Shown in pieces: positions 21,234 through 25,535 of a stretch of 64,000 nt of DNA (position 1 is its first letter; the number at the start of each line of letters is the position of its first letter). Source of the DNA: Escherichia coli (GTDB lineage Bacteria; Pseudomonadota; Gammaproteobacteria; Enterobacterales; Enterobacteriaceae). The DNA lies in assembly GCF_044324875.1 (NCBI RefSeq), contig NZ_CP172185.1. The stretch is one strand, 5' to 3'. The notes under the pieces were generated by a model that had not been told where the DNA came from, did no database searches, and saw only the letters and a list, made by a program, of their open reading frames with translations. The translations under genes were made by a program, and so were the position numbers.

Positions 21234-22085
21234 TTAACTCGAGTAAGCGGCCAGCATTTCCTGCGCCGCCAGTTTACCCAACGCATTCGCTGCGAAAGGA
21301 CTGTCGCCGGTGAGAACTTTACGGTCCTTATGTACTCGCCCGGTGATGTCGTCATTAATAATGTTCATGCCCATTTTCTTCAGCTCTTCGCCGAAGTACC
21401 AGGTGAGATGACCCGGCATATAGCCTATCTCTGGCGTTTGTTTGTCTGCGGCGTCTGGGAATGCGCAAATGGAATAACCATTCAGTGGGTTATCGCCGTG
21501 GCGAAGTGCCAGAAAAGCCGCCGGACCGTGGCAAAGGGATATAACAAAACGGTCATTTTTGATTGCCCACTGTAAAGCGGCAGCCACGTCCTGGCTTTCT
21601 GGTAAACCAATAAGTGCGCCATGACCACCAGGAACAAAGATTGCTGCATATTCGCTGTCAGCGTTGAGGCTGGCGACAACATCCGCGAGTTTATTCGGAT
21701 TGCGGAACAACGATTTATGCTGCTCAAAGAATGGCATTACTTTTTCATCTTTGTGTGGCATAGCCCAGTATTCAAACTTGGTCATCAGACCGGAAATGGT
21801 CGCCACTTCGAATTCGAAACCTGCAGCATGGAGATGATACAACGGCAGCAACGTTTCAATCGGATGGTTACCGGTCGAAAACAGTTTGCCGTTATCGGTC
21901 GGCAAATAACGTTCGTCCGCGGCGATCACCAGAATTTTATGTTTACCACGATAAGGTTTTGGGTAGTCCACGCCATCAAGATCAGAGACAGGACTAGTAT
22001 ATTGGCTAAGCGAATATTCTGAAGGGAAGAATGCATTATCTTCAGCAATATCGACCTGCGGATTTTTACTTGTTTGAACAGTCAT
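21234..22085 (-). CDS. hchA: Glyoxalase III / protein deglycase HchA (Hsp31)
   Basis: 283 aa, DJ-1/PfpI fold; matches HchA. Confidence 0.95.
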   Translation of the reverse strand: MTVQTSKNPQVDIAEDNAFFPSEYSLSQYTSPVSDLDGVDYPKPYRGKHKILVIAADERYLPTDNGKLFSTGNHPIETLLPLYHLHAAGFEFEVATISGLMTKFEYWAMPHKDEKVMPFFEQHKSLFRNPNKLADVVASLNADSEYAAIFVPGGHGALIGLPESQDVAAALQWAIKNDRFVISLCHGPAAFLALRHGDNPLNGYSICAFPDAADKQTPEIGYMPGHLTWYFGEELKKMGMNIINDDITGRVHKDRKVLTGDSPFAANALGKLAAQEMLAAYSS

Positions 22086-22676
22086 AGTGTATTCCTTATT
22101 GTTGCTTAGTTAGGGTAGTCACTATATTTGCGACTGAGCTGGTCGCTATTTTTAACCAGGCTGGAAAATTGAGTCAATATATCGAAAGCGGTAGTCGGCG
22201 GGTGTAAGTATGTAATGATGATGCTGCACTGGTGTTGAATATTATTCACGCCAAATTTTCCTTATTGAGCAACGTCGTCGCAAGTGGCCTCAATGATTTT
22301 AGACCATTATCAGAGGTCCGGGGCGGCAGGGAGAGATTTAGTGCTGTGGAATATTGTGGTGCTGATGAATATTTATATCCCGGATTGGTAGAGAAAAAGC
22401 TTTTTCCATGCACTTTTTTTGCAAATATTTCTGTATGGGAGGCGGTTTTGTTGCAGATTAATTCATAAAGAAATGCATTTGGGTGTTGGCTGGAAGAGTC
22501 GCGGGTAGATGTTATTGTGCCAGCAGGGGCAGGGTAAGGTACTGTATCGATATGCTTTGGCAATTGCATGTGCCGCAGAGGGAGATGAAATGCCAATAAA
22601 AAAGCCTGAGTTCGATGAGGGACGAACTCAGGCTAGTGTTAACTTTTACAGTAACACGCCGCGGCGCGTTGGCTGA

Positions 22677-23870
22677 TTAGAACTGGTAGACTAAGCCCAC
22701 AGCAACGATATCATCGGTAGCGATGCCGTTTGCTTTGTAGAAGTCGTCGTCGTTGTCCAGCAGGTTGATTTTGTAATCAACGTAGGTGGACATGTTTTTG
22801 TTGAAGTAGTAAGTCGCACCAATATCAACGTATTTAACCAGATCTTTATTGGTGTAACGTGGGTCGCCGTTGCCGTCATGAGCCCAACCACCTAAATCCT
22901 TACCTTTAGATTGCAGGTAAGCGATGGACGGGCGTAGGCCGAAGTCGAACTGATACTGAGCAACAACTTCAAAGTTTTGGGTTTTGTTCGCAATACCACC
23001 TCTGTCAATGTCGTTATTGTCTTTTCCGCTGCCATATGCAGTCATATTACGTGTTTCTGCATACATTGCCGCTAAATAGACATTATTCGCATCATATTTA
23101 GCACCGACTGTCCATGCTTCAGCTGTTTCACCACCAGCATATTTATTCGAGCGTTGCTCACCTAAACCAGTAGCACGTTGGTTATCAGTACGGTCAGAGT
23201 TTGAATATGCAGCCCCGAGGCTTAACCCGAAGTCAAAGTCATAGGAAGTGGACATACCGAAACCGTCACCATTTTCTTTAGACAGTTTACGATTATTACC
23301 ATTACCAGAACCTTCTTGATCCCAAAGCCCACCCGATCCTTCATTATTACCCTGATATTGCAGAGCAAAGTTCAGGCCATCGACCTGACCAAAGAAGCCA
23401 TTGTTACGGTAGGTTGCAACACCATTAGCACGACCGTTCAGGAAGTTGTCGGCACCAGCATAGGTATCGCCACCAAATTCTGGCAGCATATCGGTCCATG
23501 CTTCGATGTCATATACGACACCGTAGTTACGACCATAGTCGAAAGTACCATTCTGACCAAAGCCTAAACCTGCAAATGCCAGACGCGTTGCGGTATTACC
23601 TTTGTCGCTTTCAGGACCGTTTGCGCCAATGTTAAATTCCCACTGACCATAACCAGTGAATTGGTCAGCGATCTGAGTTTCACCTTTGAAACCGATACGG
23701 GCATATGACATGTCGCCATCGCTGCCAGCATCATCAGAGAAGTAGTGCAGGCCCGCTACTTTTCCGTACAAATCCAGTTTATTACCATCTTTATTATAGA
23801 CTTCAGCCGCATTTGCTGCGCCAGCAACTAATAACGCCGGGACCAGCATTGCCAGAACTTTTCTTTTCAT
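22677..23870 (-). CDS. yedS: OmpC/OmpF-family general porin YedS, apparently intact
   Basis: Signal peptide [37 protein letters not shown] porin N-terminus, C-terminal ...VGLVYQF; uninterrupted frame. Confidence 0.85.
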
Positions 23871-24498
23871 TATGTATTCCCTTGTGATTATAATCTTCAT
23901 GAATATATCAATAAGTGCCGTTATCCAAAAAAAAGCACATTTGGATACTATTCTATGAAGTTCATTTTATTTTAAAGATTACATGTAACAAATATATTTA
24001 AAAGATTTCAAAATGTTTCTAATCTATTTAATATAATTCAGAATTATGAATTCTAAATATAAATATTCATGAAAATTATAAATGTATATCAATATGTTAT
24101 GAGTTGAGCGGAAACATAGGGGGTATCAATGATTGTTGCGCCAAACGGCTGGTGTGATCACGCGCACATTAATGAAGGCATAAAAAAAGCCGGCATCATG
24201 CCGGCCCAAAAAAAATAAACAAGACGATAAAAGGCTAATAACGGAAGCATCATGACACAGAATAATAAAAAGGTATAATTGTAATCAGTGCTAATATATT
24301 GATTGAATGAATTAATAAAGCCGATATCAAAGATAAATAAAATCGCTCAAAACGATTTTTCCTGTATTCACTGCCGTTGCGCAAAAATTATCTATTTGTT
24401 CAAAAAATGATTGAGTCTTGACTGGCTCATCCAATGTGGAAAAATGTGACTTTTATCACATAATAGTACTAAGTCTGAATTTTCCGGGTTATCTCAAA

Positions 24499-24801
24499 AT
24501 GGAATACGGTTCGACAAAGATGGAAGAGAGACTCTCTCGCAGCCCTGGCGGCAAATTGGCTTTGTGGGCTTTCTATACATGGTGTGGCTATTTCGTCTGG
24601 GCAATGGCGCGTTACATCTGGGTGATGAGCCGGATCCCTGATGCCCCGGTGTCGGGATTTGAAAGCGATTTAGGCTCTACCGCGGGAAAGTGGTTAGGGG
24701 CACTGGTTGGCTTTTTATTTATGGCTCTGGTCGGGGCATTGTTAGGCAGCATTGCCTGGTACACCCGACCTCGTCCCGCACGTAGCAGACGCTATGAATA
24801 A
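24499..24801 (+). CDS. yedR: Inner membrane protein YedR
   Basis: MEYGSTKMEERLSRSPGGKLALWAFYTWCGYFVW...; two predicted transmembrane helices; start uncertain. Confidence 0.7.
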   Translation: MEYGSTKMEERLSRSPGGKLALWAFYTWCGYFVWAMARYIWVMSRIPDAPVSGFESDLGSTAGKWLGALVGFLFMALVGALLGSIAWYTRPRPARSRRYE

Positions 24802-24840
24802 AAACTGCTAAGGTTGCGATTCTTTGGCAACGGAGCGCGT

Positions 24841-25535
24841 ATGGACTTACAACACTGGCAGGCACAGTTCGAAAACTGGTTGAAAAACCATCATCAGCAC
24901 CAGGACGCGGCCCATGACGTATGTCATTTTCGCCGCGTCTGGGCTACGGCACAGAAGCTGGCGGCAGATGACGATGTCGATTGCTGGTGATTTTAACCGC
25001 CTGTTATTTTCACGATATTGTGAGCCTGGCGAAAAATCATCCGCAACGGCAGCGTTCTTCAATCCTGGCGGCAGAAGAGACGCGTCGCCTGCTCCGTGAA
25101 GAGTTCGTGCAATTTCCGGCGGAGAAAATTGAGGCCGTTTGTCATGCCATTGCCGCGCACAGTTTCAGCGCGCAAATCGCCCCCTTAACAACGGAAGCTA
25201 AAATCGTCCAGGATGCGGATCGGCTGGAAGCCCTGGGGGCGATTGGCCTGGCGCGCGTGTTTGCCGTTTCAGGGGCATTGGGCGTGGCGCTGTTTGATGG
25301 TGAAGATCCGTTCGCACAGCATCGCCCGCTTGATGATAAACGCTACGCGCTGGATCATTTCCAGACTAAGTTGCTGAAGCTACCGCAAACCATGCAAACC
25401 GCAAGAGGCAAGCAGCTGGCGCAGCACAACGCGCAATTTTTAGTCGAGTTTATGGCGAAGCTCAGTGCCGAACTGGCGGGGGAGAATGAAGGTGTCGATC
25501 ACAAGGTGATAGATGCGTTTTCACCCGCGGGCTGA
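24841..25535 (+). pseudogene. yedJ: HD-domain phosphohydrolase yedJ, reading frame broken by an apparent 1-nt deletion near 24980
   Basis: ATG 24841 gives [49 protein letters not shown] then stop; the rest ([18 protein letters not shown]...) continues in another frame from 24981; the H...HD motif spans both parts. Confidence 0.7.

Follow-up and report, generated by a model that had tools for sequence, protein, structure and literature searches.

The perfect palindrome GCCGGCATCATGCCGGC, located in the spacer between a yedS-type porin gene and drpB (yedR), is almost certainly the Rho-independent terminator of RseX, a known Hfq-dependent small RNA. The palindrome lies within a stretch of 64,000 nucleotides of Escherichia coli DNA (NZ_CP172185.1), which was analysed as a whole and is referred to here as the window. 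An earlier note on this DNA had suggested that the hairpin ends a small transcript, and this suggestion was borne out, as a full-length match to the Rfam family RF01401 has the hairpin at its 3' end. The same note had considered the transcript unannotated and stated that no annotated minus-strand gene ends at the hairpin; this part does not hold, since rseX is annotated in E. coli K-12 MG1655 (b4603) and is curated in Rfam as RF01401. The identity, position, structure and conservation of the element were established on the window and its relatives. The finding is real but ordinary, the element being already known.

The palindrome as the 3' end of RseX

The palindrome occupies positions 24189–24205 (17 nt) and is composed of the arms GCCGGCAT and ATGCCGGC, each of 8 nt and perfectly complementary, with a single central C between them. 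It is present in a single copy within the window of 64 kb, and no match arose in any of 100 dinucleotide-preserving shuffles. The perfect palindrome that the earlier note placed in this spacer is thus present as claimed, though not at the coordinates it was given, 24129–24218, which are those of a 29-codon plus-strand ORF. The description of its flanks as A and T runs also requires correction. On the plus strand, the palindrome is preceded by seven A residues (24182–24188) and followed by CCC and eight A residues (24206–24215, with the A run itself at 24208–24215), so that this strand has A runs on both sides and the minus strand has U/T runs on both sides. The minus-strand RNA across the palindrome reads U8-GGG-stem-U7.

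A scan of positions 23000–25500 against all Rfam families identified RF01401 (rseX, "Hfq binding RNA") at 24271..24182 on the minus strand with 95.1 bits (gathering score 50; E=3.9e-13). The match spans positions 1–94 of the 94 in the model; the palindrome corresponds to the 3' hairpin of the model and the U run to its last seven positions. The only other Rfam match in 23000–25500 was to RyhB, which scored 20.9 bits against a gathering score of 55 and was limited to the terminator. This sub-threshold match reflects the generic terminator shape only, with no homology to RyhB outside of the terminator. In the K-12 MG1655 record, the ncRNA rseX (b4603) is located at 2033649..2033739 on the yedS strand, is 91 nt in length and is flanked by drpB and the yedS pseudogene. 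The window is 99% identical to K-12 over 190 nt, and its RF01401 match is likewise situated between drpB (yedR) and yedS in the orientation of yedS. The features of the RNA and its promoter are as follows, all on the minus strand:

24182..24271, minus strand: rseX small regulatory RNA, 90 nt here and 91 nt in K-12 (Rfam RF01401; alignment to K-12 b4603)
24234..24258, minus strand: 5' hairpin of RseX, GUGUCAUGAUGCUUCCGUUAUUAGC (Rfam consensus structure line)
24208..24222, minus strand: U-rich single-stranded linker GUUUAUUUUUUUU, directly upstream of the terminator (without pairs in either the Rfam consensus structure or the MFE fold)
24187..24207, minus strand: terminator stem-loop GGGCCGGCA-UGA-UGCCGGCUU (terminator scan, fold and alignment)
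24182..24188, minus strand: 3' U7 tail of the terminator, U8 in K-12 (sequence and alignment)
24278..24283, minus strand: probable -10 hexamer TACAAT of the rseX promoter (read from the sequence, -12..-7 from the annotated 5' end 24271)

The RNA encoded in the window shares with K-12 RseX its locus between drpB/yedR and yedS, its strand relative to yedS, the 5' hairpin, the terminator stem and loop, and nearly its length (90 versus 91 nt). It differs from K-12 RseX at two positions only, namely an A to U change in the U-rich linker and the U7 in place of U8 in the 3' tail. The pairs of the 5' hairpin form in 96–100% of alignment cells and are almost invariant, hence this hairpin has no covariation support. 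The fold of the whole RNA gave a weak thermodynamic signal (z=-1.35).

On the minus strand, the terminator scan identified GGGCCGGCA-TGA-TGCCGGCTT followed by TTTTTAT, a stem of nine pairs, six of which are G-C, with a loop of three nucleotides. The stem is made up of seven Watson-Crick pairs, which span the palindrome at 24189–24205, and two further G-U pairs; the loop is UGA. A context of 56 nt folds to the same hairpin with -14.6 kcal/mol (z=-2.5), and none of 200 shuffles was as stable. The transcribed strand therefore carries what defines an intrinsic terminator, a G+C-rich stem-loop directly before a U tract, and the assignment of an intrinsic terminator to the minus strand in the earlier note is upheld by the hairpin, its U tract and the fold. 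The U8 run located 5' of the hairpin on this strand is part of the U-rich linker of RseX.

The Hfq-binding 3' modules of small RNAs such as RyhB and SgrS consist of a terminator hairpin and a poly-U tail with a U-rich stretch before them. RseX has the same elements in its G+C-rich hairpin, 3' U7 tail and upstream U-rich linker, and this layout appears typical of the Hfq-binding 3' modules of enterobacterial small RNAs. By analogy, the U7 tail is the expected Hfq-binding 3' end.

The earlier note had also raised the possibility that the hairpin acts as a bidirectional terminator that stops plus-strand transcription as well. The plus strand can form the same stem with -13.0 kcal/mol, and single-base runs flank the palindrome on both sides. 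However, the plus strand reads A7-stem-CCCA8, and the stem on this strand is followed by CCCAAAAAAAA rather than by a U tract; without such a tract, a hairpin does not make a canonical intrinsic terminator. The terminator scan lists the site on the minus strand only. Furthermore, there is no upstream plus-strand gene converging on the hairpin, as yedS is a minus-strand gene whose transcription leads away from the spacer. A U tract follows the hairpin on one strand and not on both, for which reason the bidirectional reading was rejected as very improbable, leaving the terminator of RseX on the minus strand.

The rseX promoter and the yedS-drpB region

The region corresponds to hchA-yedS / drpB-yedJ-dcm of E. 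coli and is inverted relative to K-12. The minus strand encodes hchA (21234–22085) and an OmpC-like porin ORF of the yedS type (22677–23870), while the plus strand encodes drpB/yedR (24499–24801) followed by yedJ and dcm. The spacer between the divergent genes extends from 23871 to 24498 and is AT-rich.

The hexamer TACAAT at 24283..24278 is probably the -10 element of rseX, as judged from its sequence and its distance from the 5' end, and it fits the sigma-70 promoter described in published work. As a -35 element only a weak TTCAAT or TCAATC is present, and a simple promoter scan did not list the rseX promoter. The promoter scan did list a strong, near-consensus sigma-70-like site on the plus strand at 24252–24279 (ATGACA-16-TATAAT, 11 of 12 consensus positions), which overlaps the 5' end of rseX, the -35 of which falls within the RseX 5' hairpin and the -10 of which overlaps the rseX -10. 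This site was considered as the drpB promoter and was rejected, because the drpB promoter supported by experiment is located further downstream, between the old GTG-1 (24436) and ATG-22 (24499) (PMC7648144). The plus-strand site remains a consensus match in AT-rich DNA without explanation.

The porin gene itself differs from its K-12 counterpart. The yedS-type gene of the window is intact, with an uninterrupted ORF of 397 codons (22677–23870, minus strand), whereas yedS of K-12 is a pseudogene of 1193 nt. A strong terminator-like hairpin of 12 bp with a T run follows the yedS stop codon at 22634..22603 on the minus strand. The presumed 5' region of yedS contains, approximately 50–75 nt ahead of the start codon, an inverted repeat of TATCCAAA and TTTGGATA (23922–23947, plus strand), which is perfect over 8 nt with a spacer of 10 nt.

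Pairing of RseX with the start region of its neighbour yedS was evaluated with RNAduplex. In this crude test, RseX nt 1–64 and yedS -100..+41 gave -21.7 kcal/mol and no special complementarity; the duplex was not stronger than those of 82% of the 56 other start regions tested in the window, or than those of 64% of shuffled RseX sequences. Pairing between RseX and the yedS start region thus received no support from RNAduplex.

Conservation of the terminator and of the antisense reading frame

Conservation was assessed by searching complete E. coli genomes with a query of 241 nt centred on rseX and a query of 661 nt covering the spacer, and by aligning 12 copies. Of 5,426 complete E. coli genomes, about 4,900 carry the region; query coverage is 80% or more in 4,879 of them, with identities mostly of 90–99%. 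A megablast of the 56-nt terminator by itself gave no match in the E. coli genomes, probably an effect of low-complexity masking or of the 28-nt word requirement. A scan of a genome collection was anchored on the 5' part of RseX, with the terminator left free to vary, and returned copies from E. albertii, E. whittamii, two other Escherichia sp., one more E. coli and Citrobacter amalonaticus. All of these copies, as well as four divergent E. coli strains, matched RF01401 above the gathering score (70.9–97.8 bits).

In the alignment of 12 sequences, CCGGCA-N3-TGCCGG and seven T residues are invariant, and K-12 and O157 carry an eighth T. All 11 Escherichia copies examined agree in the hairpin core and the U tail. 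The Escherichia copies have a UGA loop and the Citrobacter copy a UUU loop, and the length of the U-rich linker (24208..24222) differs among the relatives. The seven pairs of the terminator form in 100% of alignment cells (11 distinct sequences). The outermost pair of the stem changes from G-C to A-U in Citrobacter amalonaticus, which is a compensatory double change; it is the single compensatory event in the stem, and 40 of 500 shuffles reach an equal score. Covariation support is thin because the stem hardly varies, and the evidence for the terminator is conservation rather than covariation.

Two side observations concern individual copies. RseX of Citrobacter amalonaticus has a longer linker. 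In the laboratory-derived strain E. coli EC0026B_R4 (locus L012, NZ_OX460316.1; 1547–2320), an IS1A element has taken the place of rseX, yedS and the 5' portion of hchA, and only 47 nt of the 241-nt query are left. Synteny is kept in Citrobacter amalonaticus (locus L004, 1409–3457), where yedJ and drpB are located on one strand and rseX and the porin gene on the other.

Being a perfect inverted repeat of 8+8 nt within a regulatory spacer, the palindrome could also be a site that acts at the level of DNA, either bound by a dimeric protein or belonging to a repeated extragenic palindrome, and not an RNA structure. The palindrome is single-copy in the window, which shows that it is not a repeated element, and its position, closing the full-length RF01401 match and directly before the U tract, is precisely that expected of a terminator. 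The sole variation seen is compensatory at the level of an RNA pair. In addition, the occupancy peaks of Fis, H-NS and Rob near rseX are located at -143 to +20 and not at the terminator (PMC8313858). With a single copy in the window and nothing in its support, the reading of the palindrome as a repeated element or DNA-binding site was rejected, and it is regarded as extremely improbable beside the RseX terminator.

The 29-codon ORF MIVAPNGWCDHAHINEGIKKAGIMPAQKK that the earlier note described as running through the hairpin does exist (24129–24218, plus strand) and passes antisense through the terminator. If it encoded a small protein, the palindrome would be a mere part of coding sequence. The ORF starts with an ATG that is preceded, 5 nt upstream, by a G-rich AGGGGG, and the ATG and first codons are present in most Escherichia copies. 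Its reading frame is not kept among the relatives, however. An in-frame stop occurs after seven codons in E. whittamii (locus L003) and E. coli EC476 (locus L009), and the A8 of K-12 and O157 in place of A7 shifts the frame and results in a different C-terminus. Further differences occur in the ORF of E. coli E69 and in that of E. albertii, and no counterpart exists in Citrobacter. The ORF is also antisense to and downstream of a known small RNA gene, within H-NS-silenced DNA. Since the frame is repeatedly broken while the antisense RseX sequence stays conserved, the ORF is not a conserved gene, and a small protein was rejected on account of the premature stops and frameshifts, its existence being highly unlikely.

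Published RseX biology and the role of the hairpin

The expression, H-NS control, targets and loop function of RseX are taken from published work on K-12. RseX was predicted from a sigma-70 promoter and a Rho-independent terminator by Chen et al. 2002 (as cited in PMC8313858 and PMC7648144) and was described by Douchin, Bohn and Bouloc (2006, J Biol Chem 281:12253). According to the accounts of Douchin et al. 2006 in PMC8313858 and PMC7648144, RseX is a multicopy suppressor of RseP essentiality, and its overproduction represses ompA and ompC in K-12 in an Hfq-dependent manner. The sigma-70 promoter and 5' RACE of RseX in K-12 are likewise credited to Douchin et al. 2006 in PMC8313858. RseX is characterized as a 91-nt small RNA that downregulates OmpA and OmpC (PMC7648144).

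Native RseX is undetectable in wild-type cells and is silenced by H-NS; RNA-seq shows that it is strongly induced in hns/stpA mutants, and Northern analysis of delta-hns K-12 shows RseX of ~91 nt and a species of ~75 nt termed "RseX short" (PMC8313858). The band of ~91 nt in delta-hns K-12 is consistent with 3' ends at the U tract. A search of the available literature for RseX together with term-seq found no paper and no 3'-end mapping. The earlier note had held that a lack of transcript 3' ends at this site would speak against the terminator; since RseX is H-NS-silenced and undetectable in wild-type cells, missing 3' ends in such cells or in ordinary term-seq would not refute it. For the same reason, the terminator is seldom in use under laboratory conditions.

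Taken together with the published work, transcription would start at approximately 24271 on the minus strand, from a sigma-70 promoter normally silenced by H-NS with StpA as a backup, and would proceed toward the porin gene yedS. The nascent RNA is predicted to fold the GCCGGCA/UGCCGGC hairpin, and RNA polymerase, upon reaching the U7 tract at 24188–24182, would stop and release an RNA of ~90 nt. In the mature RseX, the hairpin, the 3' U tail and the upstream U-rich linker may then serve as the stabilising 3' module bound by Hfq. We infer that the copy in this strain, which is 2 nt off K-12, behaves like K-12 RseX.

The hairpin also has a published role beyond termination. RseX represses fepA, and RseX+52, which contains only the linker and terminator, represses it 23-fold (PMC11979758). 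Mutation of the terminator loop strongly impairs fepA repression and does not lower the RNA level, and no direct pairing between RseX and fepA was detected (PMC11979758). The loop is thus needed for fepA repression, apparently without base-pairing. The RseX loop has been likened to the regulatory terminator loops of SdsR, ArrS and OxyS; the OxyS loop differs in that it makes a kissing interaction with its target, whereas no direct RseX-fepA pairing was detected (PMC11979758).

A broader reading is that the conserved hairpin of the window does more than terminate, with the invariant UGA loop being a recognition element for a protein or RNA partner in pairing-independent repression, as with fepA, and that the intact yedS might belong to the same circuit. 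This reading is considered improbable, and the window adds no evidence for a loop partner or a yedS link. If true, its novelty would be confined to the loop partner and to a link with yedS, if any, as the role of the loop is already published for K-12.

As a discovery, the terminator carries little weight, given that RseX has been predicted since 2002, was named in 2006, and is present in Rfam and in the K-12 reference. Its value lies in annotation. In the PGAP annotation, the feature over the counterpart of rseX (24182–24271) is "none" in all 40 E. coli matches listed, and among the records inspected the ncRNA rseX is present only in the K-12 reference. The terminator can look like an orphan because most E. 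coli genomes have no rseX in their PGAP annotation, and scans that rely on annotated genes will keep meeting the rseX terminator as an "orphan".
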